DNA of 53,315 bases from a virus (Duplodnaviria > Caudoviricetes): IMG/VR virus record IMGVR_UViG_3300002855_000250, positions 1 through 53,315 of that record, one strand, 5' to 3'. Numbering within the stretch: position 1 is the stretch's first letter; each line of letters opens with the position of its first letter. Below are positions 2,310 through 17,688 of the stretch, in pieces. The position numbers and the translations under genes were made by a program. A model generated the notes under the pieces. It saw nothing but the letters and a program-made list of their open reading frames with translations. It searched no databases and was not told the DNA's origin.

Positions 2310-2762
2310 TTAGCCGATTGGTGGACCATCGTTTTCTTTATCCTGAACATCTTCAATGCTCATCTGGTTCTCGTCCACTTCGACCGTTCCATCTTTATTG
2401 ATCTTGCCGCGTACGCCCTCACGGTACGCCTCTTGCTGCTCACGGAACTCATCTATATCCATTTGCGATTCTGTTATGGTCAGCTCTACATCCGTTCCAG
2501 CCAAGCGGTAGAACTCGTATGAATGTCGATTTGAAGCGCCACCGTTAACGATGAAATCCAATACGGTTTTCTTCGCATCCTGACTCTTCTTTACGAATTC
2601 CGCAGTTAGAGGATCGATGCCTTCGATTGTTAGCTCTACTACTTCGCGTACAAGGTCGTTCAACTCCGGTAAATGTTCGCCTTCGCCCTTTACGTAAAAC
2701 TGTACAAGTTCCTTACGGGAATCTTTCGTTTGCTTATTGAAATGCGCTTTAATAGTTATCAT
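2310..2762 (-). CDS. Hypothetical phage protein, acidic tail with QMSIED
   Basis: 150-aa ORF with GAGGAG RBS. Confidence 0.7.
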   Translation of the reverse strand: MITIKAHFNKQTKDSRKELVQFYVKGEGEHLPELNDLVREVVELTIEGIDPLTAEFVKKSQDAKKTVLDFIVNGGASNRHSYEFYRLAGTDVELTITESQMDIDEFREQQEAYREGVRGKINKDGTVEVDENQMSIEDVQDKENDGPPIG

Positions 2763-2782
2763 GGATAATTGCTCCTCTCAAT

Positions 2783-2989
2783 TTATAATCCGAATTGTTT
2801 TGCTGCTGAATGAACGGCGAGTGAGATGGCTTCGATTCCTTCATGACCTAATTTCTTGAATTCCTTGTGCAGTTCACTTGTTAGTTTTGCGAATGAAGGG
2901 GCTGCCATAACCCAGACAGGAAGAGCCTTTTCAATCACATCATTCATCATCTCAAGCTCGATTTGTGTCATTCCGTTAAACTTGCTCAC
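2783..2989 (-). CDS. Hypothetical protein
   Basis: Probable GTG start (VSKFNG) behind a purine-rich RBS, overlapping the previous gene end. Confidence 0.55.
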   Translation of the reverse strand: MSKFNGMTQIELEMMNDVIEKALPVWVMAAPSFAKLTSELHKEFKKLGHEGIEAISLAVHSAAKQFGL

Positions 2990-3173
2990 TTGCCCTCTTC
3001 CTCCCCTCCACAATCTCCATAGCCTGTACCACGGTGACGGTGACCATGACCTTCCAGCCGTCCTTGAGCTCATATACGGCTCCGGGATATTGTTTTTCGA
3101 CATATGCCCTCCAGTCGATTGGAAGGGAGCCCACGTATTTACCATTGATGAATAATTTAGGATCTGCGCTCAT
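2976..3173 (-). CDS. Hypothetical protein
   Basis: 65 aa, ATGA overlap with the upstream gene, GAGGT RBS. Confidence 0.6.
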   Translation of the reverse strand: MSADPKLFINGKYVGSLPIDWRAYVEKQYPGAVYELKDGWKVMVTVTVVQAMEIVEGRKRASEQV

Positions 3174-3760
3174 GACTTTACCTCATAATGGGATAGGATG
3201 GGCGTGAAAGTGTAGTACGGATCGCCGGGTTCAAAATCCCAGTTTTCTTCATGTTTCTCTGGATCGTAAGCTGTTTGTTCCAGCAGTCCGTATTTAACAC
3301 CCATTTCTTGAATGTCTCCGCCATCTAATGATCCGCCTTCAAACGCAACATGTAGCACACTCTTGGCGAAGTCCAGCACCTTATCCTTTGCTGATAGTTC
3401 GGTACGGAGGGATTCGGCCTCTTCTTTCCATTCTAGAGATACGATCAGGGCGTTATTGGATGAAGCCTTCCATTCGTCTCTTTCCGCCTTAACCTGTTCA
3501 ATTTCATCAAGATACCTATTAGCCATTGTGTGCATGCTATGGCTTATTTCCTTTTGTATCTCCAGTTCTTCCCTTGTCTGTTGGAGTTGGGATTCAGCCT
3601 CTTCACATAAGAGTTTCCAACCGTCTCGGCTCATTAGGAGTTCTTGTCGCTCTTCCAGTAGGGCGCGAAGCCATTCAGGGGCGCTAAGGTGCCAATGTAC
3701 CGGAATTTCCGCATTCAACGCCTTCTCTATCGTCTCTATCAACTGCTCATTAGGTTTCAT
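3170..3760 (-). CDS. Coiled-coil hypothetical protein
   Basis: Start MKPNEQ with GGAGG RBS; heptad-rich central part. Confidence 0.65.
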   Translation of the reverse strand: MKPNEQLIETIEKALNAEIPVHWHLSAPEWLRALLEERQELLMSRDGWKLLCEEAESQLQQTREELEIQKEISHSMHTMANRYLDEIEQVKAERDEWKASSNNALIVSLEWKEEAESLRTELSAKDKVLDFAKSVLHVAFEGGSLDGGDIQEMGVKYGLLEQTAYDPEKHEENWDFEPGDPYYTFTPILSHYEVKS

Positions 3761-3959
3761 GGGATACCTCCAGACTGTGTTTAATGCACTTGAATTGATA
3801 CTGAGGCAATTCAGCGTTGAAATAATGTACTGCCGGTTGACCACAGGCGCACCATAGACGTGAGAGATTATCTCTTAGTTGGAAACTGCCATCCTCTTGC
3901 TGTATTAAGACAATCTCGCCGTGTCCCTTGCTTGGGATTGTTTGGTTATCCACTTTCAT
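3750..3959 (-). CDS. Hypothetical Cys-containing protein
   Basis: AAGGAG RBS; CACG...CIKH. Confidence 0.55.
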   Translation of the reverse strand: MKVDNQTIPSKGHGEIVLIQQEDGSFQLRDNLSRLWCACGQPAVHYFNAELPQYQFKCIKHSLEVSHET

Positions 3960-3989
3960 CGCTCCTTCGCTTTATCTTCGTTATGTGCA

Positions 3990-4166
3990 TCAGATTGGGT
4001 CAAACTTATCCCTAATGTCTTGGCATTTATTGATAGCATTCTCAAGCAAATCTCGTATTTTGTATTGCTGTTTCGTGTCAATGTAGGACGACGCTTCGCC
4101 TATGAGTCGTTCTATCTCCCCGACACTTACTACGATTTCTTTGGTCTTTCCTGTCGCCTTAGCCAA
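3990..4166 (-). CDS. Hypothetical protein
   Basis: TTG start behind AAGGAGG. Confidence 0.5.
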   Translation of the reverse strand: MAKATGKTKEIVVSVGEIERLIGEASSYIDTKQQYKIRDLLENAINKCQDIRDKFDPI

Positions 4167-4218
4167 CGGGCAACGCTCCCTCCTTCGCATAATGTGTCCT
4201 TTGCGTCAAATCTTCGAA

Positions 4219-4572
4219 CTACGCAGTGAACAAGTTCGGTTCGAGTGCCTTAAGCAAGCGTTCCGCATCTCGCGCCGTACCATCTCCGTTCAGTACGCGA
4301 TACCGCAATTTGTCGTCCACCAGAGGATCCCAAATAATTAACTTTCCGTCTTCAAAGTCATCTGCTAATCCCTCGCTGAATGCGTAAGCTAGGATACAGA
4401 AGTCTTCACCATCTGTTCCGTAACCCTCTACCATCTCTTTTGTTACGCCGACTTCCGCCAACTCAGCAAGGTTCTCTTCGTTGATTTTGACGATCATATA
4501 AGCGTCTTCCCCGCCTTGTTGGTCAACTACTTCCAGAGCGTTCAATACATTCAGTACAGCCTGCTTATTCAT
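4219..4572 (-). CDS. Acidic hypothetical protein
   Basis: 117 aa, GGAGG RBS. Confidence 0.7.
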   Translation of the reverse strand: MNKQAVLNVLNALEVVDQQGGEDAYMIVKINEENLAELAEVGVTKEMVEGYGTDGEDFCILAYAFSEGLADDFEDGKLIIWDPLVDDKLRYRVLNGDGTARDAERLLKALEPNLFTA

Positions 4573-4646
4573 TGTTCATTCCTCCAAATTTGATTTATTG
4601 TATTGCACACTTTGTGTCTACTCCGCCAGATAGATCGGCTCTATCC

Positions 4647-4946
4647 CTATTCCTCCAGACCGGCGAGTTGGCGCAGATGAGTATCTAGCATGTTCCTAAT
4701 TTGAAACTTGTCTGCCATACAGTCTTCGTTTAATGCCAATTCATAAGCGACTTTTTGTTGTTGCATAGCCAACTTATACTCTAGTATCTTGCGGGTTACT
4801 TCTTCGGGGGATTCGGTGACAAGGTCACCAACACCATCGCATACGACAACTGTAACCGATGGATTTTCATAGTCTTTTCGCACAGATGTTATTAAGTCAG
4901 GATTGAAGTAATATGCTCCGTTACTTGTATTGGTCAGTTTAATCAT
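4647..4946 (-). CDS. FlbD/SwrD-like protein
   Basis: MIKLT...YFNPDLITSV...T.V...VTESPEEVTRKILEYK matches the FlbD family pattern (MIxLTxxNG..LNPDLIExI..VxESPEEV); GGAGG RBS before ATG 4946. Confidence 0.7.
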   Translation of the reverse strand: MIKLTNTSNGAYYFNPDLITSVRKDYENPSVTVVVCDGVGDLVTESPEEVTRKILEYKLAMQQQKVAYELALNEDCMADKFQIRNMLDTHLRQLAGLEE

Positions 4947-5436
4947 GTCCTTTATCCACCTCCATACTGATGCCTGGTATGGTGATGCCGAGCATATACA
5001 ATGTATAGCGGATAGTCTTCTGTTCATCCCGAATAGCTTGCTTATCCCCGTTCCAATTAACATCATCGAGTAATCCTTGCAACCCGTCGAAATGTCTCTT
5101 TACATTGCATACCCCAACCTTTTCTACCTTCTGTATCCCTGTATCCTCTGCATGGAGATAAAGGGCTTCCTGGGCGATCTTGACTGGATTGATACGTTTA
5201 GTTGTCCAAACTTCTAAACCATTTAATTCATGTGTTCGTTCCCATTCTCCCCACTGAATACTCCCCAACGCCGCTCGCAGCCTTGCCGTTTCTCCCTGAT
5301 CGGATGGGACGTCGAATGCACCATTTTCAATTTCGTTGATCAGTTCCCATAATTCCATCGAAGGAGCTATAGGGCTTTCTGTAATTTCCTTGGCTCTGTG
5401 CAACAACTTATCCCCATCTATCAACCTCTTATTCAT
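4939..5436 (-). CDS. Hypothetical phage protein
   Basis: RLIDGDKL N-terminus typical of small phage proteins; AAGGAGG RBS. Confidence 0.65.
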   Translation of the reverse strand: MNKRLIDGDKLLHRAKEITESPIAPSMELWELINEIENGAFDVPSDQGETARLRAALGSIQWGEWERTHELNGLEVWTTKRINPVKIAQEALYLHAEDTGIQKVEKVGVCNVKRHFDGLQGLLDDVNWNGDKQAIRDEQKTIRYTLYMLGITIPGISMEVDKGHD

Positions 5437-5449
5437 GGGAGTCCTCCTT

Positions 5450-5734
5450 TCAGATGTAATGGTTCATATTCTTGTAATGCTCGATGAGGCCGCTCTTCAC
5501 CAAATCAAAATACTTGTTTTGAATAACGACTTCTGTCTTTCCGAGTGCAAACGACATCGCCCGGCGTCCGTCATGCTTGTAAAACTTCGCAAGGTAACAA
5601 AGATCATCTTCGGTGAATTTCTGGCCATGATTCTCGTGGAAATCGGGATGGTATTTGATCCTTCCGAGATTATCAAATATGAATCCATCTCTAGAGTCCT
5701 GCATGATCCGAGCTCCCATACGCTCAGCCCCCAA
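5450..5734 (-). CDS. Small Myb/HTH-like phage protein (often annotated 'DNA-entry nuclease')
   Basis: GRIKYHPDFH.NHG.KFTEDDL.YL.KFY..DG...MSFALGKTE pattern; start uncertain. Confidence 0.55.
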   Translation of the reverse strand: MGAERMGARIMQDSRDGFIFDNLGRIKYHPDFHENHGQKFTEDDLCYLAKFYKHDGRRAMSFALGKTEVVIQNKYFDLVKSGLIEHYKNMNHYI

Positions 5735-5737
5735 TGG

Positions 5738-6034
5738 TTAAAATGGCAATCTATCTAGATCCTCTAGCTCCAACACATGCCAGACTAAATCTGCGACTTT
5801 AACCGTTCCGATTGCTCGGAGGATGAAGAGGTTATCAGGGACTTTAATGTCCCATCCCGTACCAACGCACATGACTGGAAGCTTTTCCTTTTCAGCCTCT
5901 GGATGATTGATCAATGCGTATACCACGATGCAGCCATTCTGTTCGATGGTTGATATGAGTTGGGAGCCGATTTGGACTTCGATGTGCTGTACCTCAGTGC
6001 TTGGTAAGATGTAATGCTTGTGGATTGTTGGCAA
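5738..6034 (-). CDS. Hypothetical phage protein
   Basis: TIHKH...VGTGW...IGTV...LVWHV; TTG start with AGGAGG RBS. Confidence 0.65.
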   Translation of the reverse strand: MPTIHKHYILPSTEVQHIEVQIGSQLISTIEQNGCIVVYALINHPEAEKEKLPVMCVGTGWDIKVPDNLFILRAIGTVKVADLVWHVLELEDLDRLPF

Positions 6035-6045
6035 GGTAAGGCCTC

Positions 6046-7038
6046 CTAGAATAGTGTTTGTTGCCCCATTTCCTCAATTGCCATTTCGAGATTTGCGGCT
6101 GCTGTCCGGTAGTAACTTTCTTTCAGCTCGACTCCAACAAAGCGTCTGCCCATTTTTAGCGATACATATCCTTCACTTGCAATTCCAGCGAATGGTGACA
6201 AGACTACATCGCCCGGATTAGACCACAACTGCAATGCCCGCTCGATCACGTCCAACTGTAGTGGGCAGATGTGTTTTTCGTCCTTCTCATCTCGCGCAGG
6301 ATTGCGGTTAAGAGTGCGGCTTTGGTTGATGTCCATCCATACCGGACTAGCGTATCGACGCCATACCTGATGCGAGTAAACTGGATCAGTTTTAGCCATA
6401 GATATGAATCGATGTTGCCTGCTGTCCTTTAGTGTTGGTTCAACTCTTGGAGCATTTGGTTCGTCAAGCCCTACAAATTCAGTTAACCCATCAGGATGAG
6501 CAACCGGCTCTGGGTTATCCCCCTGCTTGCGCATTGTGATTAAATAATCGGGCAATCCTTGACGACTCATCGCTGAGTCTTTCACGAGCTGCTTGTGCAT
6601 TAATCCAATGGCTTTGGTTCTTGTGGCTTCGATCAGTGGGTCTTTCCAAATTGCCACCTTGGAATGGTAGATAAATCCCTCATCCTCGAACATTTGCCTT
6701 AGTTGCGCTGGGAAGTCTTTCAGTCCAATGAACCCATCTCTTGACTTCATGGCCGGGATATCCATGCAATGGAACGATAGCAGCCGACCAGGCATCATAA
6801 CCCTGTACAGTTCCTTGATAAGGAATCTAAAGTGGTGCATGAAATCCTCATCGCCCTTGCTATTTCCCATGTCGCGTTCACTGTTCGAATAGGTGTAGAG
6901 TGATGCAAACGGAGGACTGAATATCGAATAATGAACACTGTCGTCTGGGATCCCCTTTGTGACATCTACGCAATCGCCATGATATAAAGCGTATTGGTCG
7001 GTTATCACTTCATCAATCGTCTGGACTTCTAACTGCAT
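6046..7038 (-). CDS. DNA methyltransferase, N4-C/N6-A family (beta class)
   Basis: Catalytic SPPF near the N-terminus, HICP, SAM-binding SPFAGIAS, GVELKESY; C-terminal QQTLF. Confidence 0.9.
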   Translation of the reverse strand: MQLEVQTIDEVITDQYALYHGDCVDVTKGIPDDSVHYSIFSPPFASLYTYSNSERDMGNSKGDEDFMHHFRFLIKELYRVMMPGRLLSFHCMDIPAMKSRDGFIGLKDFPAQLRQMFEDEGFIYHSKVAIWKDPLIEATRTKAIGLMHKQLVKDSAMSRQGLPDYLITMRKQGDNPEPVAHPDGLTEFVGLDEPNAPRVEPTLKDSRQHRFISMAKTDPVYSHQVWRRYASPVWMDINQSRTLNRNPARDEKDEKHICPLQLDVIERALQLWSNPGDVVLSPFAGIASEGYVSLKMGRRFVGVELKESYYRTAAANLEMAIEEMGQQTLF

Positions 7039-8429
7039 TGTTTCTCACTCCTTAGCCAATGCGGGATTGTCATCCGTTTCCGTGGAACATATTCCGTTTT
7101 ATCCGCTTTTGTTGACTTGATATTTGCGCTTGTGATCTCTTTCGTATGCTTGATCATTTGAGCGACCATCTGCATAAAATCAGCTTCCTTGCGCTTGATG
7201 TTGGCAGATACCGCTCCTTCCAGTTCGGAAATGATCATATGCACGTTTACAGGCTTTGTCTGTCCGAAGCGGTAGCAACGTCTTATGGCTTGGAACACTT
7301 GCTCAAAGCTGTCTGAGAGTCCTACGAACGCCATATCAGCGCAGTGTTGCCAGTTCATTCCGAATCCGCAGATCGATGGCTTGGTGACCAACACACGTAT
7401 CCTGCCCTCTGCAAAATCAAGCATGGCTCTTTCCTTGTGTTCGGGTGAATCAGATCCCTTGACTTCGACCGCTCCTGATATTGCCTTAGTCAATAACTCC
7501 GACTCTCGATTAAGGTCACACCACACTAGGAATGGGCGATCAGTTGCATTGACGATCTCTGCACACTTGGCAACGCGTAACTCTGTGCTGTCCCTCCGCG
7601 CTCTCTGGCGCTCCTGCAGTGTCTTGGCTTCTGCCGCAAACAATCCGTCATCGAAGCTATGCTCAACGCTCACGATGTGGTCTATGACATTCAGCGGTGG
7701 TAGGTTGTAGGCTCCATCATCGAACCCGATATCAGATGGCTTAGTGACCAATGCTGCCCATGACGCTACCCACTCCCAGAACTTGTCCTCAGCGTGGCCC
7801 TTCAAACGCCATTTACTTGTATCCCCGCCATCATGAACAAAGAACATCGACAACATCTCAGTACGGCTCATCACGCCCATGAACTCACTGTGGTTACCAA
7901 GCTCCATGTAATCGTTAGGTGCTGGTGTAGCGGTACAGGCGAGCTTGTACGGCGTGGCTCTGAAACTGTCTAGGATGAGGTTTCTCATCTTTCCGTCGTA
8001 GGCTTTTATGATGGAGCTCTCATCCAGAACTACACCCTCAAATTCCTCTGGATTAAACTTGTGAAGCATCTCGTAGTTGGCAATGTTGATGCCTTGTCTA
8101 ACTTCCGACTTCGATCGGCATAGCGTGATATTGATTCCTAGCTTCATGGCTTCTCGGACTGTCTGTGAAGCTACTGCGAGAGGTGCAAGGATTAATATGT
8201 TGCCGCCTGTATGCTGCTGTACGAGTCGCGCCCATTCCGTTTGCATGAATGTCTTACCTAATCCCGTTCCCGCGAAAATGGACGCTCTGCCCTTTGCAAC
8301 TGCCCACTTGACTATTGCCCTCTGGAAGTCGAATAACATTTGGTTAATGTCGTTATCAGTGACTGAGAATCCAGATGGCTCAACGATTGACTTCTTGTTC
8401 TGCAAAAACTGTTCATAGGCCGCTTCGAT
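7029..8429 (-). CDS. SF2 (SNF2-like) helicase/ATPase
   Basis: GTGLGKT, LDESS, TATP, GFGMNWQ, QAIRRCYRFGQ; probable ATC start at 8429 behind GGAGGTG (the track uses TTG 8405). Confidence 0.9.
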   Translation of the reverse strand: MEAAYEQFLQNKKSIVEPSGFSVTDNDINQMLFDFQRAIVKWAVAKGRASIFAGTGLGKTFMQTEWARLVQQHTGGNILILAPLAVASQTVREAMKLGINITLCRSKSEVRQGINIANYEMLHKFNPEEFEGVVLDESSIIKAYDGKMRNLILDSFRATPYKLACTATPAPNDYMELGNHSEFMGVMSRTEMLSMFFVHDGGDTSKWRLKGHAEDKFWEWVASWAALVTKPSDIGFDDGAYNLPPLNVIDHIVSVEHSFDDGLFAAEAKTLQERQRARRDSTELRVAKCAEIVNATDRPFLVWCDLNRESELLTKAISGAVEVKGSDSPEHKERAMLDFAEGRIRVLVTKPSICGFGMNWQHCADMAFVGLSDSFEQVFQAIRRCYRFGQTKPVNVHMIISELEGAVSANIKRKEADFMQMVAQMIKHTKEITSANIKSTKADKTEYVPRKRMTIPHWLRSEKQCS

Positions 8430-8472
8430 CTTGTCTCACCTCCAAAAGTAAACCTATAGATTGATTTTTTGA

Positions 8473-9840
8473 TTATCTGCTTGCTAGGATTCGAGTCCCT
8501 ATCTCGAAGGCAACTACCGAAGTGACTCCGTTACCCGCCATTTTGTAAAGTTGGGAGTCGCTTATTCCCTCTTTAAGCCCGTTGTCACGAATGATTGCTA
8601 ATACCTGTTCAGTAATGTCGTTTCGGCTCATGTCTACTTGCTCGATGTACTCCGGATGCCTGAACAGTTTGAGTCTGACATACCACCAATCGGGATAGCT
8701 CTGGAGTCTGAAGCATTCGAGCGGTGTAAGCTTCCGGATGCGGTAGCCATTTAACGTCTTAGGTGTGTGCCCGACCGTCAACGCATCCGTTTTTCCCTCT
8801 GGCTTGATGATTACCGATTCCTGTACAGTTGATCGTTTGGCATCTCCTTGAAAGGCGAATATCTTATCCTCATTTTCAACCCATCCGGCTATGCGTTCAC
8901 TTGAAAATTGACGTTGAATAACGTGCATCCTTCTTCCTTTTTCCCATTTGGTGTTACTGATTCCTTTGGGATACCATGTATCAAGGTAGTAGGCAATCCC
9001 TTCACCATCAACACTGAATTGCGTTGGTTTGTGGTCGATGATTTTCGTAACCGCATTCCCATGCTGAGCGAGTTGTGTTGGTGCTATTCCTTCGGGATCA
9101 TATACCTTCCCTGTGCCTCCGCTGTCGCACTCTAACTGTCCAGCGACTAAAACCTTCGGCTCCAAACACCCGCCCTGCATAGTTTTAAGGCATGTGCTGA
9201 TTCCGTCAGGGTGCAATACCTGATTAACTTCTCTATAGCCATCAGCTAATTGGCCAACGATTCTAATAGAGTTTTTGTTTTCGCCTCCGAAAGGAAATAT
9301 TTTTCTGGTACTTCCTTCTCCAAGACTTGCGACAATGAAGATCCGCTCTCGGTTTTGAGGAACGTAGGCCGCGCTGTTAAGCACTTGCCATTCTCCCACG
9401 TACCCCAACTCATCCAGCGTATTGAGGATAATTCCGAGCGTTCTTCCTCCGTCATGGTTTCGGAGTCCGTCCACGTTTTCAAGGAGCAGAAAGTCGGGTC
9501 TGAGAATAGATGCGAACCGGATAACTTCGAAAAAGAGAGTACCTCTTGTCTGGTCTGCAAATCCTTCACGTTTGCCAGCAATGCTAAAAGTTTGGCAAGG
9601 AAATCCTGCAGCGATAAGCCGTATGCCCCCCTCGACTCGCTCTCCGAGTTCCCGAATAGATCCATCTGATACATCTCTGATGTCATATGCGCTCCATAGC
9701 CTCCTTTCTGGGTCGTGTAGGACTTCGTAAGCTTGGTGAGCGTATTTGTCCCACTCGACATATCCAACGCACTCCATGCCCGCTTGAGTAAGCCCATAAC
9801 CAATACCACTTATACCTGCAAACAGTTCAAGGAACTTCAT
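8473..9840 (-). CDS. DNA (cytosine-5) methyltransferase with a long multi-TRD variable region
   Basis: Motifs I FAGISG, IV GFPCQ, VI ENV, VIII QNRER, IX RKLTPLECFRLQ, X YKMAGNGV. Confidence 0.95.
   Translation of the reverse strand: MKFLELFAGISGIGYGLTQAGMECVGYVEWDKYAHQAYEVLHDPERRLWSAYDIRDVSDGSIRELGERVEGGIRLIAAGFPCQTFSIAGKREGFADQTRGTLFFEVIRFASILRPDFLLLENVDGLRNHDGGRTLGIILNTLDELGYVGEWQVLNSAAYVPQNRERIFIVASLGEGSTRKIFPFGGENKNSIRIVGQLADGYREVNQVLHPDGISTCLKTMQGGCLEPKVLVAGQLECDSGGTGKVYDPEGIAPTQLAQHGNAVTKIIDHKPTQFSVDGEGIAYYLDTWYPKGISNTKWEKGRRMHVIQRQFSSERIAGWVENEDKIFAFQGDAKRSTVQESVIIKPEGKTDALTVGHTPKTLNGYRIRKLTPLECFRLQSYPDWWYVRLKLFRHPEYIEQVDMSRNDITEQVLAIIRDNGLKEGISDSQLYKMAGNGVTSVVAFEIGTRILASR
9246..9686 (-). 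CDS. Overprinted +1-frame ORF within the C5 MTase (M.EcoHK31I beta-like), 146 aa
   Basis: AGAAAGGAGG and GGAG upstream of ATG 9686; QMDLF; SSIRWMSWG...SLSQVLEKEVPEKYFLS. Confidence 0.7.
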   Translation of the reverse strand: MTSEMYQMDLFGNSESESRGAYGLSLQDFLAKLLALLANVKDLQTRQEVLSFSKLSGSHLFSDPTFCSLKTWTDSETMTEEERSELSSIRWMSWGTWENGKCLTARPTFLKTESGSSLSQVLEKEVPEKYFLSEAKTKTLLESLAN

Positions 9841-9986: not shown

Positions 9987-10345
9987 TGTCCCAGCTCCTT
10001 TAGTACCGCTGCTTCTTGCTCAGGCTTGCCTATCTTCCATTCGGTCAAATAATGCCTTAGCGTTCCGATAGCGACGTTGTGGCGCTCAGCAATCGCATCT
10101 TTACCCATTCCAGACAGTCTCAACCGAAGATACTCTTCACGCGACACTTTGAACTTTCTTTGCTTGGCCGCCGACTTGGCAATTGATTTAACCCGATTTT
10201 CGGTTATGATCGTTGGCTTCTTACTGCCCTTTTGCATAAGTGATTCGGGCTTGAATGTCCTGACTGGATTGCCGAGATTAACGCCGATTGTTGTAGGTGA
10301 CCCGGGCGGTATCTGGTACACCGTAACATCTCCGTTGATGTTCAC
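9983..10345 (-). CDS. Hypothetical protein with a C-terminal HTH
   Basis: MGKDAIAERHNVAIGTLRHYL. Confidence 0.6.
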   Translation of the reverse strand: MNINGDVTVYQIPPGSPTTIGVNLGNPVRTFKPESLMQKGSKKPTIITENRVKSIAKSAAKQRKFKVSREEYLRLRLSGMGKDAIAERHNVAIGTLRHYLTEWKIGKPEQEAAVLKELGQ

Positions 10346-10638
10346 CTCGGCCCCTCCCCTCGGGGTTGTTCATCTCCAATGATTTCGTGGAGCCACTTCT
10401 CGATCCGTCTCAAGTCTGCGATCAACTCGCGTACATTTGTTGCAGTGGATTCTTTGATTTTCATCCGCAAAATGAAACGGAATGCGTAATGAATATTTGT
10501 GAAATATCCGAGCGTATTGTACAATTCCGTTTCTTTCCCTGTTTCTTTGTTCTCGCTGACTTTGCCCGTGTAATCTTTCAGGATGAATTGGAATGAGTCA
10601 CTTTCGAGATACAGATTGTCTTCGATTTGTACTTTCAT
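10342..10638 (-). CDS. Conserved phage hypothetical protein
   Basis: LYLESD.FQFIL...LGYF pattern; GGGGTG RBS. Confidence 0.65.
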   Translation of the reverse strand: MKVQIEDNLYLESDSFQFILKDYTGKVSENKETGKETELYNTLGYFTNIHYAFRFILRMKIKESTATNVRELIADLRRIEKWLHEIIGDEQPRGEGPR

Positions 10639-10651
10639 TTGGTTTCACCCC

Positions 10652-11497
10652 TTAATCGGATTTGTCTTGCTGTGTGAAGCACCCGCACCCGCCTATGTCA
10701 TCCATATCAATCTGCATTCCTAACCCTTTTTCCCAATCATCTCGTAACTGCCGTAATGTGTACGGCGTCTTTTTGTACTTGGGAACCTTAAGTGTTGAAC
10801 CGTCCTTTTTTTCCACAAACTCATAATGTGAGAAAACGGATTTGCTAAGAATTGAGACATCATCACGCTCAAGGTAATTTCTCATGTCCTGCTCTTTTTC
10901 TTCGTGGTAGAGGAATCGTTCCGGCATCTTTTTGAGTAGGTTGATAAAGTGTCCTTGCCCTGCCCTTACACAGAACCCGCCACAGTTATTGTGACTGAAT
11001 CCCATTTCATAAAGGCGCGGTATCCGAATTCCTTGTTCAGCCATCTTCGAGAAAATGAATTCCTTGTCGATGTATGGCGGTTCGGTCAGGAGTGCTTCAA
11101 CTCGATACGGTTTCCATCCTTCTCTTATTGCATCCATACGGTGTATCTCTGACCAATCAATTCCGACATAGACAATGCAATCGTCTGGACTATAGTTGGC
11201 AACTACTTCGTCCTTACACATCTTTTGTTTAAGCAATGTGGAACACTGTGCAACGCGACTATTTCCAATCCATCTAACGTCACGGAATACATCCCATGGC
11301 GTTCTGCCATCCGCAATACGAACTAACTTAATTCCTGACTTCTTGGTTGTTTTGTCAATGAACCGGTACGTATCTTCATCCTCAATCAGAGTATCCGCGA
11401 ATAGGTTTATGACATTTTCTTTTCCGTATCTCTCAGCCAGGAGTTCTGATGTGTACCATGATGCCCCCCCGCCACTATAGCTGCTGATGTGGATCAT
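10652..11497 (-). CDS. PP-loop / PAPS-reductase-like protein with Cys clusters
   Basis: SYSGGGAS, ADTLIEDEDTYRF, C...LK, HNNCGGFC, GGCGCF. Confidence 0.75.
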   Translation of the reverse strand: MIHISSYSGGGASWYTSELLAERYGKENVINLFADTLIEDEDTYRFIDKTTKKSGIKLVRIADGRTPWDVFRDVRWIGNSRVAQCSTLLKQKMCKDEVVANYSPDDCIVYVGIDWSEIHRMDAIREGWKPYRVEALLTEPPYIDKEFIFSKMAEQGIRIPRLYEMGFSHNNCGGFCVRAGQGHFINLLKKMPERFLYHEEKEQDMRNYLERDDVSILSKSVFSHYEFVEKKDGSTLKVPKYKKTPYTLRQLRDDWEKGLGMQIDMDDIGGCGCFTQQDKSD

Positions 11498-11513
11498 CCT
11501 GTACCCATCCCCC

Positions 11514-12647
11514 TCAATTCGTAGTGCGGTAGGGAAGTACTAGATGCAGCGCATCAGATCCACCAACCGGCTTAATGATGATAGGGCTCATATTGCCGTT
11601 AAAACCGATGAACACTTCGTCTGTATCGATTGCTTTGAGAGCATCAAGGGCGTATTTGGAATTAAAAGCGACCTTACTTGCCTCGCCCTCCATTTTGCTA
11701 ACATCCAGCTCATCTTCGAATGCACTGTTTTCAGCAGTGGAGGATACTGTAATGCCGCCCGATTCATTGCTCATTAATCGAATGATATTGGTCTTTTCTT
11801 CTTTTGAGATGAGGTATGCTCGATCAATTGAATCTTCCAAAGCCTTTCGGTTGAGCGTCACTTCCGTTTTGAAAGAAGTGGGAATGATCTTCGATGTATC
11901 GGGATATGTCCCATCTACCATTCGAACAAAGAAAGATAGGTTTTCCGCTTGGAATGAAGCTTGATTATCCACGACAGAAATCGTTACAAGTGAATTGTCA
12001 TTGGGCAAAACCTTGTACAATTCGCCCAATTCTTTGCCGCCAATCAGCACGTTAGAAAAGATTGTGTCTGTATCCACTTGCTCGTTTAGCGTCGCCATCC
12101 TGTGACGATCCGTAGCCACTAGCCTGATTTCGCTATCCGATAGATTCAGCAAGACTCCCATCAGAACCGGCGTTCCTTCATTTGTTGTGACGGCGAATTT
12201 TGTTTTATCGATTGCATCACGGAGCTTGCTTGCAGCAATAGAAAATGATTCGTCAGATTCGATTAGCGGAAGAGTTGGAAACTCATCGGGGTCAAGTCCG
12301 GTTAACTGCAATTTTGTACGGCCCGATTTAAGGTTTGTCTTGAACCCTTCTTCTATCTCAATCTCGATTTCGTCCTTGGGCATTTTCTTTATCATCTCGA
12401 CAAAGAACTTTGCGGTAAGGACAATCCTGCCCGGTCGCTCTACTGTTCCGACGACTGCAGTCTCCGATTCCAGGGGGATGCGAGACTGAATAGTGATTGT
12501 CTGGTCACTAGCCGTCAAGGTGACTGCTGTAGCGTCTGCAACTACTAGGATGCCACTTAGTATGGGAATCGTTGTACGGCTTGCTACAGCCTTGCTAACG
12601 TGCTGTATGGCGTTGTTTAGAACGTTCTTATTTATCGTGAATTTCAT
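11514..12647 (-). CDS. dnaN: DNA polymerase III beta sliding clamp
   Basis: 377 aa; RTTIPILSGI, DEFP, VATDRHR, GTYPDT, FNSKY, LVLPYR; AAGGAAGGTG RBS. Confidence 0.95.
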   Translation of the reverse strand: MKFTINKNVLNNAIQHVSKAVASRTTIPILSGILVVADATAVTLTASDQTITIQSRIPLESETAVVGTVERPGRIVLTAKFFVEMIKKMPKDEIEIEIEEGFKTNLKSGRTKLQLTGLDPDEFPTLPLIESDESFSIAASKLRDAIDKTKFAVTTNEGTPVLMGVLLNLSDSEIRLVATDRHRMATLNEQVDTDTIFSNVLIGGKELGELYKVLPNDNSLVTISVVDNQASFQAENLSFFVRMVDGTYPDTSKIIPTSFKTEVTLNRKALEDSIDRAYLISKEEKTNIIRLMSNESGGITVSSTAENSAFEDELDVSKMEGEASKVAFNSKYALDALKAIDTDEVFIGFNGNMSPIIIKPVGGSDALHLVLPYRTTN

Positions 12648-12670
12648 GTAGTCACCTTCCTTTCGTATAG

Positions 12671-12982
12671 TTAGATCCATTGATTGCACAACCGACATTC
12701 AATGTGGTCAGGCTCCATGGCTGCTTCTCCGAACATGTAACTCCAAACCTCTTCCGTCTGGCCTTCTGGATGGGTACATGATCTTACAAACTCTTTTCTT
12801 CTATTTTCACTTTCATCAAGTACGTATTTGCATCTTGCACATATAAGACTTTCAAAAGCACATATACCATCCGGTTCGTCATAGAACTTTCTGTCCTTGT
12901 AATAAACGTCACCCTTCTTAAAGGAGCAATCACATTGAGCACACTTCCTTTTCAAAGTGCGAGATGCGATAACGCGCTTCAT
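12671..12982 (-). CDS. Cys-rich (Zn-binding) hypothetical protein
   Basis: CAQC, CARC, CTHP, CRLC. Confidence 0.65.
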   Translation of the reverse strand: MKRVIASRTLKRKCAQCDCSFKKGDVYYKDRKFYDEPDGICAFESLICARCKYVLDESENRRKEFVRSCTHPEGQTEEVWSYMFGEAAMEPDHIECRLCNQWI

Positions 12983-13512
12983 CCAGCGTCTTTCCCTTCC
13001 AGAATGCTTTTAATGACCTCTAGTTGATATTGATGGTATTCATTTGTCAGCAACTCGACATCGTGGTTTTGTGAAGCCTTCACAATCTGAGCCAATACAT
13101 AAGCATCACGGACGTTGTCGCTAGGATGTTCAAAGTTCCAGAGTCGCAGGATGGGGATTGTCATGTTGTCTTTCTTGGTGTTCCCTTTGCCTGTAGCGAA
13201 CTTTTTGAGTTGACTTGGCGTAGCCTCAATGAATGGAATTCCTGCATCAAGTAAGGCGAATCGGATTGAGTATCCTACCGCATACTGTGTGCTCACCCCT
13301 TTGCCCTGTGAACCGAACGAGAACCCTTCTATTGCAACTGCGCTATTCTCCGGAACGAAATTAATGATGTTACGACCGTATTCCAGCAATTCCTTAGCAG
13401 TAGATTTGATTCCAGTTTTAAGATGAATCTCTTTTTGAAAGATAGCCTCACCTGAACTATCTAATACGACCACGCCTGTCTTTGTTGATGGATCGATCCC
13501 AACGTGATTCAT
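12979..13512 (-). CDS. RuvC-like Holliday junction resolvase
   Basis: VGIDPST, AIEG, KKFATGKGN, DNVRDA. Confidence 0.85.
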   Translation of the reverse strand: MNHVGIDPSTKTGVVVLDSSGEAIFQKEIHLKTGIKSTAKELLEYGRNIINFVPENSAVAIEGFSFGSQGKGVSTQYAVGYSIRFALLDAGIPFIEATPSQLKKFATGKGNTKKDNMTIPILRLWNFEHPSDNVRDAYVLAQIVKASQNHDVELLTNEYHQYQLEVIKSILEGKDAG

Positions 13513-13666
13513 GTTTTTGCTTCCTCTCCTTTTTTGGCTCTCTATCATGCGCCGGCTCTATATGACGGTAGTACTCGGCGATCACGCGACCTTTGTCATC
13601 GCGAAATATTTCGTATGGCGTGTCATTGATGTAAGGGTCGTTGCACTTCTCGAGCATTTCCCTCAC
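13457..13666 (-). CDS. Hypothetical protein
   Basis: GTGA overlap with the upstream gene; GAGGTG RBS. Confidence 0.5.
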   Translation of the reverse strand: MREMLEKCNDPYINDTPYEIFRDDKGRVIAEYYRHIEPAHDREPKKERKQKHESRWDRSINKDRRGRIR

Positions 13667-13917
13667 AGCACCTCATCCTTTCCGATTCGCCCTTGTTCCT
13701 CGTAAAAGGTTCTGAGATAAGGGAACTTGCGGGCGTAATCGCGTATTTTGTAGTGCTCGAACTCCTCGACGAGTGCATCGTATAGCTTTTGCATTCGCTT
13801 AAGTTCCTCCGATCCAATCGATGCCATCATCGTCGGGTCCCGCAGCTTTAGAGCTCCGTCCACGATCCGTTTTAGAACCTTTTCCGCTTCCGCTTCCGTT
13901 TTTATTTGTCCCGCCAC
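13663..13917 (-). CDS. Hypothetical protein overlapping the helicase 3' end
   Basis: GGAGGTG RBS then GTG (MAGQIKTEAE...), 84 aa. Confidence 0.6.
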   Translation of the reverse strand: MAGQIKTEAEAEKVLKRIVDGALKLRDPTMMASIGSEELKRMQKLYDALVEEFEHYKIRDYARKFPYLRTFYEEQGRIGKDEVL

Positions 13918-15247
13918 TCGGCTTTGCACCTCCACTGAAGTGAGTGCGATCCATGTCGACGAACCCGCCTGATTTAGAATTAAAGCCCATCTCAACCTTG
14001 CCTATACCGACATTCCGACCTTTTGCGAGAATGACCTCCATGATACCTTTGTGTTCCGATTGAGGATTATAGTAGTCGTCGCGGTAAAGGAAGATTACAA
14101 TGTCCGCATCAGATTCTATAGATCCCGATTCCCGTAGGTCTGACATCATAGGTCGCTTATCCGGGCGTTTTTCACAGTCACGACCGACCGCAGATATGGC
14201 AACAACTGGGCATCCTTCTTGCATTGCAATGCGCTTAAGGCTTTGGGAAACGAACTTTACTCCCTCGTCGTTCTTACTAAATCTGCGACCTGGGTCTACC
14301 AGTTGAAGGAAGTCGATGTAAATTATCAGTTTCCGATCAGGATGTTTCTTTTTCACTTGCTTCGCTTTGCGTTTTATATCTTGTACCGTCATACCAGAAG
14401 TGTCATCGATGTAGATTAGGAGTTTTTCAAACTCATCCATCGCATCACTCCATCGCATCCAATCCGAATCATCAAGATTTCCGGTACGTAATTTTGTTGA
14501 ATCAATATTCCCGATATTGCAGATGTACCGTTCAGCAATTTTTTCTTTAGGCATTTCCAGAGAGGCGAAGAATACCACATACCCTGATTTGGCGGCCTGC
14601 TTCGAATCCTCGATGACAAAGGCGGTCTTGCCGATAGATGGTCGAGCTCCGAGGATAATCAAGTCCTTGTCCTGATGCCCGCCAGTTAGTGTATCCACCT
14701 CTTTACTGGCTGTCTTAGCCCCAGTTATCCCTTTCTTAGTGCGACGCTCGCGTATGACTTCGTGATGATTTTTAAGGATGTCAGATGCCTTTATTGGACC
14801 TTGTCCCTCTTCACCTGATCCAAGCTTCTCGGAGAGCTCATCAACCGCCTTCTGAGCTTCCCCGATCAATTCCTTACCGACCATGCCGCCGTTGGCTCCG
14901 GCGTTCGTAAGCTGGCCCAAGGTCCTCACTGTCTGCCTTAGCAGCGACTCCTCTTTGACGATAGATTGGTAACTTTCAAACTGAGCAATAGAGTGGACAG
15001 AATTGAGCAATCCGACCAAGTACGTGTAACCGCCAAGCTTATCGATGTTTTTCCCCGATACTTGAGACATTGTCATGAGGTCAATTGACTTGTCGTTTTC
15101 TTCTAAGAACCGGAAGTACTCCATAGCCAATTGATGCCGTTCATCTTGGAAATCAAGGTTTTGAAGCGTACATTCGGAGATCAGATCAGGCTCAAGAAGT
15201 ATGCACCCCAGTACCGCGGCTTCCGCTTCGTAAATGTGTTCTTTCAT
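13799..15247 (-). CDS. DnaB-family replicative helicase
   Basis: EAEAAVLG, GARPSIGKT, SLEM, IDFLQL, RPMMSDLRESGSIESDAD, AKGRN. Confidence 0.95.
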   Translation of the reverse strand: MKEHIYEAEAAVLGCILLEPDLISECTLQNLDFQDERHQLAMEYFRFLEENDKSIDLMTMSQVSGKNIDKLGGYTYLVGLLNSVHSIAQFESYQSIVKEESLLRQTVRTLGQLTNAGANGGMVGKELIGEAQKAVDELSEKLGSGEEGQGPIKASDILKNHHEVIRERRTKKGITGAKTASKEVDTLTGGHQDKDLIILGARPSIGKTAFVIEDSKQAAKSGYVVFFASLEMPKEKIAERYICNIGNIDSTKLRTGNLDDSDWMRWSDAMDEFEKLLIYIDDTSGMTVQDIKRKAKQVKKKHPDRKLIIYIDFLQLVDPGRRFSKNDEGVKFVSQSLKRIAMQEGCPVVAISAVGRDCEKRPDKRPMMSDLRESGSIESDADIVIFLYRDDYYNPQSEHKGIMEVILAKGRNVGIGKVEMGFNSKSGGFVDMDRTHFSGGAKPSGGTNKNGSGSGKGSKTDRGRSSKAAGPDDDGIDWIGGT

Positions 15248-15588
15248 TCCTCAGCACCACTTTTCAGTCGCATTAGATGTGGCGGGCAATCAATCGCTTT
15301 TTGCTCCCATTCATCCATTTCAGCGAATCTATCTTCTGTATGGGCAGCCAGTAAGTTATGATCTGTGAACTGGCTAGGATCCAGACGAACAATGTCGGCA
15401 ATGTCAGGGAACCATTTTGATGAAGCCCGATGCAGCCTATAGTTTTCGAAGGCTATTATTGGGTCCATATTTTCAAGAGCCTCAACCCACTCATCAAATA
15501 TTTGAGGGTTATTCCTTAAATCAGGTGCCTTGCTCGGGTAAGCTGCCGACGCTTTCCCCAACAATAATGCGACCTCTTCTCTCGTCAT
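15244..15588 (-). CDS. Helicase loader/inhibitor (SPP1 G39P-like)
   Basis: MTREEV..LL...AYP...W...L...FPDIADI; lies between the initiator and helicase. Confidence 0.75.
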   Translation of the reverse strand: MTREEVALLLGKASAAYPSKAPDLRNNPQIFDEWVEALENMDPIIAFENYRLHRASSKWFPDIADIVRLDPSQFTDHNLLAAHTEDRFAEMDEWEQKAIDCPPHLMRLKSGAEE

Positions 15589-16426
15589 ATTCTCCACCGC
15601 CAATCTGCCCTCTTAGAAAGTCGAGGTTAGAACCGAATTTCGTTTCGCTCGCTGCCGCTAATCCTTCAGGATCTATTGTTGGATAATCTTCATAGCGTTT
15701 CTGATTAAGAAAAGTAGAAGGATGAGGAATGAAGTTCGGTTTCGTCTCGAGCAGCTCACATGTATCTGCAAAGTTCATGGTGTTAGCGATAACGATATTG
15801 GGATCGAAATATTCCTTTTTCGAATGCTCGAACCACTTCTGTTTTGCATATGCTTTTGCTACTTTCCTTGGATAGACTTTGAAGAAGAATTCAAACCGCT
15901 CATTATTTTCTTTAATACTTTTCTTTAAAAGATCTTTTTCTTTATATGGGGGAACAATGCTTCCCCTCCAAACACCATTTCGAGGGGAAGGATACTGCCC
16001 CTCCGAGGGGAACAACGCTTCCCCTCCAACATTATCTTGAGGGGAACTATACTTCCCCTCGCGTTCAGCGAATAAATCCATTTGTTCTTCCATGGCGTCA
16101 CCGCTCTTCTCAATATTCCATTGCTCGTAATTCTTGTTAAATTTCAACTTGCGAGGTCTGACGGTTGTCTCGCTCTTTGTTACAAGAAGCACCCTATTCT
16201 TTATTAGTAGGTTCACTTCTTTTTTTATTGTCCTCAGAGATAGGCCAGTGGTTGACTGAAGGAATGAGAGAGAGAACTCATAATCTTTCCTGCTGTATCC
16301 GTAAGTCAACCGCCAAACCTTGAGGATGATCCGAAGCTGAGCGCCGTTAAATGCGTAATAACAAATAGCATCGACAGTCTCATTTGCTACTGGAGTGAAT
16401 CCATTCTCCTTTTGCGGACTTGCCAT
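15521..16426 (-). CDS. Replication initiator (lambda O-like N-terminus)
   Basis: MASPQKENGFTPVANE, RLTYGY, FFKVYPRK..K..A, PHPSTFLNQ; internal iterons. Confidence 0.9.
   Translation of the reverse strand: MASPQKENGFTPVANETVDAICYYAFNGAQLRIILKVWRLTYGYSRKDYEFSLSFLQSTTGLSLRTIKKEVNLLIKNRVLLVTKSETTVRPRKLKFNKNYEQWNIEKSGDAMEEQMDLFAEREGKYSSPQDNVGGEALFPSEGQYPSPRNGVWRGSIVPPYKEKDLLKKSIKENNERFEFFFKVYPRKVAKAYAKQKWFEHSKKEYFDPNIVIANTMNFADTCELLETKPNFIPHPSTFLNQKRYEDYPTIDPEGLAAASETKFGSNLDFLRGQIGGGEYDERRGRIIVGESVGSLPEQGT
15901..16060. repeat. Replication origin: four 22-bp palindromic iterons plus an AT-rich tract
   Basis: GAGGGGAA-N6-TTCCCCTC-type units at 15947-15968, 15982-16003, 16005-16026 and 16039-16060; AT-rich 15901-15946. 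Confidence 0.9.
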
Positions 16427-16432
16427 TCCACC

Positions 16433-17068
16433 TCACCCGCTTGCTTTTTTTCCGAAGATACTTTCGTACAATTCATCTATTTTCTTTGCGAAACCGATTG
16501 GGCTTGTACCGCGTGCTGTTTTTACCGTAATGCCGTACTCCTCAAGAAGCTCTCTTACTCCATGCTGGAACTTTTCCCAAGGCGTTTCTTCGACCGTGTA
16601 GCCGTATCTGAGAGCGTCAACAAGATCAATGAATGAATGTGTGGCCGCCCTTTCCTTCAACATCTTCATATGCTCGCTGTCATAGTCGCTGCCATCCCTC
16701 GCTAGCTGCCAAGCAAGATAATCAATGTTAGCGTCATCTTTCATCGCTTTTGCCAGAGCATCAGCCACTTCCCTCGGAAGGGGAACCTTCTTTGCTGCTT
16801 TAGCTTCCTGAAGCTCCTTGTTAAGCTGGACGACATTATCCTGAAGGCGCTCGGAGCTCTCAAACATTCGCCTCTCGTCCTTTGCCTTTTCATCAACGAG
16901 CTGCCGAAGTCTTTCTATTTCCGCTCTATATTGGTTAATTTCGATATCGAGCGTTTCGATGTGACCGATAAGCACATTGACCGCGTCGATGTAGTTGATT
17001 CCATATGCTAGATTAGCTTGCTTTTCGATTTCTTTAATCTTTTCTTTCGAAAGCCTTGTTGTTATCAA
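16433..17068 (-). CDS. Coiled-coil protein with a DUF1642-like domain
   Basis: KVPLPREVADAL...ALRYGYTVEE. Confidence 0.6.
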   Translation of the reverse strand: MITTRLSKEKIKEIEKQANLAYGINYIDAVNVLIGHIETLDIEINQYRAEIERLRQLVDEKAKDERRMFESSERLQDNVVQLNKELQEAKAAKKVPLPREVADALAKAMKDDANIDYLAWQLARDGSDYDSEHMKMLKERAATHSFIDLVDALRYGYTVEETPWEKFQHGVRELLEEYGITVKTARGTSPIGFAKKIDELYESIFGKKASG

Positions 17069-17688
17069 TTTGCAACTCTCCTTTCATATTTATTGGCTGT
17101 TGGAAATACCGTTGCATATTCCGGTACCCACTCAGGAGCTGGATACTTGCTGAGATATCCTAACCGATTAACCCACTCATCAACCGGTTGCTCAGCATGT
17201 AGCGCCTTTAGTAGATCATGCGCACCGTGTACGTCATTCAGCGCCCTGTGAGCCCCGCTGAGCTCTACGCCATACTTCTCGCACATATCAATGAGCTTGT
17301 GAGGATAGGTCGTTCTATCACGGCTGATGGTCATCGTATCGATAAATGGATTATTGAAGGTCTTTCCCGCCACCCTCATCATTGACCAATGAAGGAACTG
17401 CAGATCAAATGCGGCGTTGTGAGCGACTAGCAAAGCGTTACCCATTATGATGCGTAGGATCTTGAAGGCGGTATCCTCGTTCAATCCTTTTTCAACTTGG
17501 TCCTGTGTAATCCCCGTAATCCTCGTAATCTCGGATGTGATCTCGATATCCTGTTTTACAATAGTGCTGAACTCGCTCACGACTTCGCCGTATCTGACCC
17601 TTATAGCGGCCATCTCTATGACTCTATCGTTTTTGTGATCTAGGCCGCTTGTCTCAAAGTCGAAGACGCATATATCATCTAAAAACAA
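17065..17688 (-). CDS. DEDDh 3'-5' exonuclease (Pol III epsilon-like)
   Basis: VFDFETSG, AHNAAFD, HRALND. Confidence 0.92.
   Translation of the reverse strand: MFLDDICVFDFETSGLDHKNDRVIEMAAIRVRYGEVVSEFSTIVKQDIEITSEITRITGITQDQVEKGLNEDTAFKILRIIMGNALLVAHNAAFDLQFLHWSMMRVAGKTFNNPFIDTMTISRDRTTYPHKLIDMCEKYGVELSGAHRALNDVHGAHDLLKALHAEQPVDEWVNRLGYLSKYPAPEWVPEYATVFPTANKYERRVAN

Follow-up and report, generated by a model that had tools for sequence, protein, structure and literature searches.

Using homologues of the proteins encoded in the early operon of a temperate phage, the provirus record IMGVR_UViG_3300002855_000250 (53,315 bases, rated 85% complete; this whole stretch is referred to as the window), we searched for short peptides resembling those through which proteins bind the bacterial beta sliding clamp, DnaN. 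In these sequence comparisons, the C-terminal tail of an N4/N6 DNA methyltransferase, the interdomain linker of a RepO-type replication initiator and the N-terminal leader of the late-gene activator ArpU carry such peptides far above chance across homologues. The interpretation that we favor, with moderate confidence and on the grounds of sequence comparison, is that these peptides are clamp-client tags aimed mainly at the clamp of the host, and that the DnaN encoded by the phage itself is an optional extra.

A sequence-only reading of the window had proposed that the phage supplies its own clamp as a platform that places methylation and modification enzymes on newly replicated DNA, protecting it from restriction, and that possibly links late activation to replication. 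The clamp-type motifs of the methyltransferase and RepO proved to be conserved, as did the ArpU leader; however, the co-occurrence of the motifs with phage dnaN, and the motifs read in an overprinted open reading frame (ORF) and as QIDM in a PP-loop enzyme, were not supported.

Conserved clamp-type motifs in the methyltransferase and RepO

The clamp motif was taken as the pentapeptide Q-phi-x-L-F or the hexapeptide Q-phi-x-L-x-L, in which positions 1, 4 and 5 matter most for clamp binding (bioRxiv 10.64898/2026.05.27.728225). The coordinates given for the motifs in the sequence-only reading were all exact on checking. Among 85 greedily chosen, non-overlapping ORFs of the window (16,805 residues), four matches to Q..[LIM]F were seen versus 3.65 in shuffles (P = 0.49), and the tighter pattern Q.[SDTE][LM]F was found twice versus 0.54 in shuffles (P ~0.10); the remaining two matches to the broader pattern were QLPLF at 24583-24597 and QFQLF in the ORF 22963-23280. 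The count within the window is thus at chance, and the decision therefore falls to conservation among relatives. The QMDLF of RepO fits the consensus in full, and the QQTLF of the methyltransferase fits it at positions 1, 3, 4 and 5 but has Gln at position 2.

The QQTLF tail lies 13 residues beyond the PF01555 domain, outside the folded part of the protein. We compared the best 120 clusters of homologues, with bodies 64-82% identical, out of at least 8,000 candidates scored at E <= 1e-10. The pattern Q..[LIM]F was found within the last 35 residues of 55 of the 120 clusters, versus a mean of 2.07 (maximum 6) over 300 tail shuffles, and formed the exact C-terminus in 18 of those 55; the bodies contained none in 35,474 residues. 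In the motif-anchored logo, Q (55/55), L (50/55) and F (55/55) stood out among varying flanks, position 2 was variable (P 18, L 12, E 6), position 3 was mainly T, S or D, and an acidic residue mostly followed the pentapeptide. In a species-level sample of 80 loci from many phyla (55-77% identity; 78 complete tails), the pentapeptide was present in 16 of the 78 tails versus 1.0 (maximum 5) expected, so that the enrichment over shuffled tails was 16- to 27-fold. Six clusters end in QLSLF, the motif of PolC with an affinity of 3.1 uM on the Bacillus subtilis clamp (bioRxiv 10.64898/2026.05.27.728225), and three end in QPDLF, the C-terminal motif of the phage Mu activator MuC, validated by two-hybrid assays and L-to-A mutants (PMC12867686). 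On the tree of methyltransferase bodies, the pentapeptide trait changed at least 15 times, compared to 36-42 times in five label shuffles; because it changed so often, the tail is not a single inherited accident.

The methyltransferase belongs to a group of helicase-paired N4/N6 enzymes (PF01555; phrog_67 / phrog_16), with phrog_16 spanning both parts. A superfamily 2 (SF2) helicase gene was located upstream of the methyltransferase in 77 of the 80 related loci, and in eight loci (L030, L043, L055, L069, L078, L079, L136 and L142) the two are fused into one ORF of 750-982 residues, measured stop to stop. Seven of these eight fusions keep an x-x-x-L-[FL] tail, which argues against a tail that merely recruits the helicase. 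A complex prediction for phage DnaN with methyltransferase residues 301-330 gave an ipSAE of 0.01 (mark 0.32) in a run without controls and is not used here either way. In a full-text literature search, we found no report that connects the beta clamp with a DNA methyltransferase of bacteria or phages; among methyltransferases, the available part of a 2022 review of clamp partners names DNMT1-PCNA alone (PMC9690074).

In RepO, QMDLF is located in the indel-rich linker between the two domains, ~12 residues past the winged-helix domain. Among 55 full-length homologues (42-67% identical), Q..[LIM]F was present at one aligned place in the linker in 26, and x-x-x-[LV]-F was found there in 10 more. 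The sequence-only reading had named, as checks of its proposal, the conservation of the motifs among relatives and their co-occurrence with dnaN; the methyltransferase tail and the RepO linker motif are both conserved by these counts. Given that positions 1, 4 and 5 are fixed, that the flanks are variable, and that the sites are terminal or in linkers, the sequence data support the view that the methyltransferase and initiator motifs show the behavior of conserved, clamp-binding-type short linear motifs.

The same RepO linker (window 15980-16070, residues ~120-150; homologues P0121-P0175) also contains two to three tandem E-[GV]-x-D-x-x-P peptides in varying copy number, which may represent a second docking motif.

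The N-terminal leader of ArpU

The MQLAF at the start of ArpU, listed as a weak variant in the sequence-only reading, turned out to be part of a widespread leader, Q-[LM]-x-F-x-L-P-E-L-D, that is present in most related prophages. In the AlphaFold model of ArpU (overall mean predicted local distance difference test score, pLDDT, 74), residues 1-10 are coil with a mean pLDDT of 51, so that the leader is predicted to be flexible. The window sequence, QLAFEL, matches the hexapeptide pattern except for F instead of L at position 4. For a class-wide view, we used 301 genomes of the host class, which yielded 33 readable ArpU N-termini (five of them already among the related prophages; counted by eye). 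In 20 of the 33, the conserved LPE[IL]D was immediately preceded by Q-[LMIVQ]-x-[FL], and single N-termini read QLDLF, QLSLL and QLTLPGL.

The heptapeptide and the 2310-2762 protein

The protein encoded at 2310-2762 consists of a well-predicted beta-barrel (residues 1-98) followed at residues 99-106 by the invariant peptide SQM-x-[ILM]-[DE]-E-[FY], in which Q100, M101, E105 and F106 were found in 11 of 11 sequences. A second peptide, Q-[LMV]-x-I-[DE]-[ED], is present in the disordered tail and corresponds to the QMSIED that had been taken as a weak clamp motif; the peptide is conserved, but it is not a canonical clamp motif. Many relatives (for example, L032, L046, L052 and L057) end in DDLPF or DELPF, similar to the tail of single-stranded DNA-binding protein (SSB); the window copy, ending in DGPPIG, lacks this tip. 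Neither PDB nor BFVD returned a fold match at E <= 0.001, and the assignment of the barrel as an oligonucleotide-binding (OB) fold SSB was dropped as unsupported.

The same heptapeptide occurs at methyltransferase C-termini in Lachnospiraceae-type loci, and its sharing between these tails and the 2310-2762 family suggests one shared partner. The tail of the methyltransferase in the window is itself a pentapeptide, not a heptapeptide. Compared to the box that binds PCNA (PCNA-interacting peptide, PIP: Q, a hydrophobic residue at +3 and two aromatics at +6/+7), the heptapeptides of the relatives are spaced in the same way, with F-L or L-L in place of the two aromatics. We also inspected the Y-family polymerases in the genomes of five methyltransferase loci (L105, L118, L121, L131 and L143) with the tails QISIEDFL, QMSIEDFL or QMSIYDFL. 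Because these host polymerases carry pentapeptides alone, the heptapeptide gains no independent support as a clamp motif.

Phage DnaN and its linkage to the motifs

Residues 1-375 of the phage DnaN align end to end with the B. subtilis DnaN structure 4tr6 (E 1.3e-85). At 22 positions (Escherichia coli numbering) that we take to form the peptide-binding cleft, 18 residues are those usual in 68 ordinary DnaN representatives, and the cleft is thus largely kept. Specific to the phage-type clade (the window, L030, L045, L055, L061 and P0228) are 152 T/S (usually R), 174 R, 246 K and 364 Y, at presumed cleft positions. This type of clamp is rare in the sequence collections: tblastn against phages returned 175 records, all below 60% identity and the best at 36.3%; one relative (56% identity) was found in the viral collection and none above 35% identity in the genome collection; and four DnaN representatives at 40% identity or more were present among the best 150 of 1.84 billion.

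A dnaN gene was present in 5 of 33 related RepO-type loci and, with the window counted, was located within 600 bp of the RuvC gene in all six dnaN-bearing loci. Phage DnaN is, then, an optional part of a RepO-DnaB-RuvC-DnaN replication module, always beside RuvC. The linker motif is carried by 11 of the 19 loci with full-length RepO (8 strict, 3 loose), and dnaN is found within 10 kb at two of those 11; three dnaN loci (L030, L055 and L061) have a RepO without the linker motif. For the methyltransferase, 2 of 80 loci had a dnaN-like match within 10 kb, at 23-24% identity. The co-occurrence named as a check in the sequence-only reading therefore fails. Since the motif bearers are mostly without a nearby dnaN, the phage clamp is not required as a platform, and since most motif-keeping relatives lack a phage dnaN, the usual partner would be the host clamp.

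The RuvC-like resolvase of the window is a short form; among its relatives, 10 of 23 (L032, L034, L036, L041, L043, L045, L051, L055, L061 and L062) have a Lys-rich linker and, as their very last residues, Q-x-x-L-[FL]. To judge from the sequences, clamp clients are laid out in just this way in textbook cases. Tagged RuvC was found at 4 of 5 dnaN loci versus 6 of 18 loci without dnaN; this difference is not significant (Fisher P = 0.13), and the association of the tag with dnaN is a hint and no more.

Proposed mechanism and alternative explanations

If the clamp is the partner, as we infer, each peptide would most likely occupy the hydrophobic cleft of the beta clamp, host or phage, that happens to encircle the DNA. 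RepO would bring clamp and replisome to the phage origin, in the manner of the plasmid initiator TrfA; the methyltransferase would travel on clamps that stay in place once the fork has passed, methylating new DNA ahead of host restriction, like DNMT1 on PCNA; and ArpU would activate late genes solely on replicating, clamp-loaded DNA, as MuC and the T4 proteins gp33/gp55 do. The phage DnaN, presumably loaded by the host clamp loader, would supplement or replace the host clamp pool.

Several observations weigh against this interpretation. The motif count inside the window, considered alone, is at chance level. No linker motif is present in 19 of the 55 RepO homologues. Among the methyltransferases, 25 of the 120 clusters and 18 of the 78 loci have tails of a different class, the heptapeptide Q-x-x-h-[DE]-[DES]-h (QMSIEDFL, QITFDDL, QEAFDDLL), and 40 of the clusters and 44 of the loci match neither tail pattern, many of the 44 being near variants; with tails so varied, the partner could be less universal than the clamp. 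The 10 Y-family polymerase loci of the five genomes described above contained no heptapeptide, just canonical or degenerate pentapeptides. A non-aliphatic residue at position 2, such as the Gln of QQTLF, weakens measured peptide binding (bioRxiv 10.64898/2026.05.27.728225), although the MuC motif QHDLF works, so that non-aliphatic residues are tolerated there (PMC12867686). The ArpU leader has F-x-L or F-L in place of the consensus L-F, the start codons of several ArpU genes are uncertain, and the affinity of hexapeptides for the B. subtilis clamp is lower by a factor of at least 10 than for that of E. coli (bioRxiv 10.64898/2026.05.27.728225).

The main rival, which the variety of tail classes keeps alive, is that the short linear motifs are genuine and conserved but serve a different shared partner (a replisome protein of phage or host, such as DnaB, SSB or primase, or the SF2 helicase), or act as an autoinhibitory or degradation tag, and that the likeness to clamp motifs, a Gln with hydrophobic and acidic residues after it, is convergent; we consider this rather unlikely. 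It would account for the heterogeneous tails within one methyltransferase family (QxxLF, QMSIEDFL, QITFDDL, QEAFDDLL or none), for QMSIE[DE]F being invariant also in the unrelated 2310-2762 family, often with an SSB-like DDLPF end, for the heptapeptide-free Y-family polymerases of heptapeptide-methyltransferase genomes, and for the nearly constant pairing with the helicase. Conversely, positions 1, 4 and 5 are fixed as in clamp motifs, the exact validated clamp pentapeptides QLSLF and QPDLF occur at termini, and all bearers are DNA-transaction proteins with precedents among clamp clients. Close Clostridia-type relatives read QMSIFD in one tail and QMSIEDF in others, in similar contexts, suggesting a common partner, and the tails retained in seven of eight helicase fusions likewise speak for the clamp rather than the helicase. 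That the motifs are functionless, i.e., chance matches or remnants kept by descent, is the explanation to which we give the least credence. The chance-level count in the window, the inflation of raw counts by related sequences and the clustering of the trait on the tree (fewer changes than with shuffled labels) are what such motifs would show; however, chance or descent would hardly produce the enrichment over shuffled tails, motif positions that are invariant amid flanks variable in both sequence and length, repeated changes of the trait on the tree, and the same motif at termini or linkers of four unrelated families in these prophages.

The proposal of the sequence-only reading, that the phage clamp is a private platform and that the motifs evolved for phage DnaN rather than for the host clamp, appears improbable. 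The conserved changes of the phage-type clade at four presumably cleft-lining positions, the proximity of dnaN to RuvC at every dnaN locus and the (non-significant) excess of tagged RuvC at these loci are consistent with it. However, dnaN is missing near most motif bearers (9 of the 11 motif-bearing RepO loci, and all but 2 of the 80 methyltransferase loci), three dnaN-bearing loci have a motif-free RepO, the phage-type clamp is rare, and no clamp loader was found among the proteins of the region and the large ORFs. A broader combination, which on the present sequence evidence is speculative and rather unlikely, is that temperate phages of Bacillota wire four DNA transactions to the clamp by one peptide code, namely origin firing (RepO), methylation of new DNA (the very widespread helicase-paired N4/N6 methyltransferase), Holliday-junction resolution (RuvC tagged at its C-terminus) and late transcription (the ArpU leader), that Q-M-S-I-E-[DE]-F is a second, PIP-like class of bacterial clamp motif, and that the rare phage DnaN (152 T/S, 174 R, 364 Y) is a private clamp favoring phage clients.

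Comparison with known systems

Under the interpretation that we favor, with the host clamp as the main partner, what would be new are the client families for a known docking code; clamp use itself has already been published for the late activator of phage Mu and for the plasmid initiator TrfA. MuC has clamp motifs at N-terminal residues 2-6 (QHDLF) and at the C-terminus (QPDLF); through clamp binding, late transcription is tied to replication, the N-terminal motif is needed for late transcription, and phage Mu uses the host clamp (PMC12867686). ArpU, like MuC of the Mor/C family, is a phage late activator with a motif at residue 2 (PMC12867686), but it belongs to an unrelated family (TIGR01637), its putative tag has the form Q-L-x-F-x-L or QLSFL, as opposed to Q-x-[DE]-[LM]-F, and its host is Gram-positive. 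Because the ArpU leader is widespread and MuC provides a precedent, the suggested link of late activation to replication gains a published parallel (PMC12867686). TrfA, the iteron-type initiator of plasmid RK2, has an internal motif with a Leu-Phe on which both clamp binding and the assembly of the replisome at the origin depend (PMC4980987). RepO resembles TrfA as an initiator with an internal clamp-type motif (PMC4980987); in contrast, it is a phage protein of the lambda-O type with the motif in a disordered interdomain linker, and part of its homologues lack the motif.

A clamp-docking peptide of DNMT1 puts this methyltransferase on newly replicated DNA via PCNA, and the phage enzyme would be similar as a DNA methyltransferase with a putative clamp-docking peptide (PMC9690074). 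DNMT1, however, is a C5 maintenance enzyme that binds trimeric PCNA through a PIP box, whereas the phage enzyme is an N4/N6 methyltransferase paired with an SF2 helicase, with Q-x-x-L-F and a dimeric beta clamp as the counterparts. In phage T4, the gp45 clamp is a mobile platform for gp33/gp55 through terminal peptides (PMC9690074). The prophage likewise encodes its own clamp and has terminal peptides on non-polymerase proteins, but T4 has a trimeric clamp together with its own polymerase and loader, and in the prophage the clamp is a bacterial-type DnaN and neither of the two was found. Canonical clients include PolC (QLSLF), Pol Y1 (QLDLF) and MutS (QLSFF, in which F at position 4 is tolerated) (bioRxiv 10.64898/2026.05.27.728225). 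The prophage tags resemble these as apparent Q-phi-x-L-F pentapeptides at termini or linkers; the candidate clients differ in kind: the methyltransferase, the phage initiator, the transcription activator and, in relatives, the resolvase are not among the clients listed in the available part of that source (bioRxiv 10.64898/2026.05.27.728225).

If this interpretation is correct, a methyltransferase family with at least 8,000 matches, in prophages of many phyla, methylates at the replication fork and is the bacterial counterpart of DNMT1 on PCNA, which would account for a protection of phage DNA against restriction that keeps pace with its synthesis. Clamp-coupled late transcription would then extend past T4 and Mu to ArpU, a large family in temperate phages of Gram-positive bacteria.

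Gene content of the region and rejected motif bearers

The genes form a single co-directional operon on the minus strand, running from ~22 kb down to 1.8 kb in the order YqaJ-like exonuclease, RecT, DnaQ/PolC-type exonuclease, RepO-type initiator, DnaB, RuvC-like resolvase, DnaN, PP-loop enzyme, C5 methyltransferase, SF2 helicase, N4/N6 methyltransferase, several small unknowns, the 2310-2762 protein and ArpU (Table 1). The best explanation of the region is an early operon for replication, recombination and DNA modification in a temperate phage of the Paenibacillus type. The ORFs named in the sequence-only reading are all present on this strand, and Pfam supports the families assigned to them. 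The host is probably of the Paenibacillus kind, since the RepO homologues are nearly all from Paenibacillus; megablast of the region against the phage collection gave no DNA-level match to deposited phages. In this record, rated 85% complete, a domain search of the proteins of the region and of 10 other ORFs of at least 250 residues found no polymerase or clamp-loader domain, which, together with the RNase_T match of the exonuclease, agrees with the earlier statement that an epsilon-like exonuclease is encoded but no polymerase or clamp loader.

Table 1. Genes and peptides of the early operon (window coordinates)
Feature	Position	Strand	Evidence or remarks
ArpU-family late-gene activator	1779..2252	-	TIGR01637, 73.8 bits vs 43.1 cut-off, residues 6-147; phrog_248 transcriptional activator
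QLAFEL, hexapeptide-like leader	2232..2249	-	ArpU residues 2-7; outside TIGR01637 (model starts at residue 6)
MQLAF	2238-2252	-	ArpU N-terminus
Beta-barrel protein, phrog_5494	2310..2762	-	150 residues; Q-M-x-I-[DE]-[DE]-[FV] peptides at 2445-2465 and 2349-2366
QMSIED	2349-2366	-	2310-2762 protein
N4/N6 DNA methyltransferase	6046..7038	-	PF01555 residues 36-313, E 7e-18
QQTLF	6049-6063	-	Last five residues of the N4/N6 methyltransferase
SF2/SNF2-like helicase	7029..8405	-	Helicase_C, ResIII, weak SNF2; phrog_62 and phrog_16; overlaps the methyltransferase start by 10 bases
C5 cytosine methyltransferase	8473..9840	-	PF00145, E 1.6e-61
QMDLF	9654-9668	-	Alternate-frame ORF within the C5 methyltransferase gene
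PP-loop (PAPS-reductase-like) enzyme	10652..11497	-	phrog_424, E 6e-47; weak PAPS_reduct; weak SspD match
QIDM	10703-10714	-	PP-loop enzyme
Beta sliding clamp DnaN, full length	11514..12647	-	PF00712, PF02767, PF02768; TIGR00663, 312 vs 137.65 bits
RuvC-like resolvase, short form without C-terminal tag	12979..13548	-	RuvC Pfam match
DnaB-type replicative helicase	13799..15247	-	DnaB_C, E 1.5e-75, and DnaB N-terminal domain
RepO-type replication initiator	15521..16426	-	Phage_rep_O residues 6-103; C-terminal replication-initiation phrog residues 166-250
QMDLF	16070-16084	-	RepO residues 115-119
DnaQ/PolC-type 3'-5' exonuclease	17065..17688	-	RNase_T, E 3.5e-32; NCBIfam exonuclease families; no clamp-type motif seen (sequence read)

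Two further peptides that had been listed as clamp motifs are, in the comparisons made here, not above chance across homologues. The overprinted ORF (9246-9809), said to carry QMDLF at its N-terminus, lies in the +1 frame inside the well-supported C5 methyltransferase gene and has nothing in its favor; this frame contains 17 stops, and the 187-residue ORF is its longest open stretch. In a weak test, the single comparable piece of a homologue (L077) had an open +1 stretch of 116 residues without the motif, and the QMDLF of this ORF was rejected. In the PP-loop enzyme, QIDM is the start of a strictly conserved, catalytic-looking block in the family tail, Q-I-D-[ML]-x-D-I-G-G-C-G-C-F (120 homologues). 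QIDMF is present in 38 of the 120, inside this block and adjoining GGCGC; position 5 is F in 61 of the 120, the least conserved position, and is D in the window, so that QIDM is not a clamp motif here. The enzyme, with its weak match to SspD (which acts in phosphorothioation), may modify DNA in some way that is not methylation.

Directly downstream of ArpU, at the edge of the window (1-1575), is a putative large serine recombinase, named from reading its translation. An FtsK/AAA-like ATPase is encoded on the plus strand at 25939-27219, in the low-GC lysogeny region.

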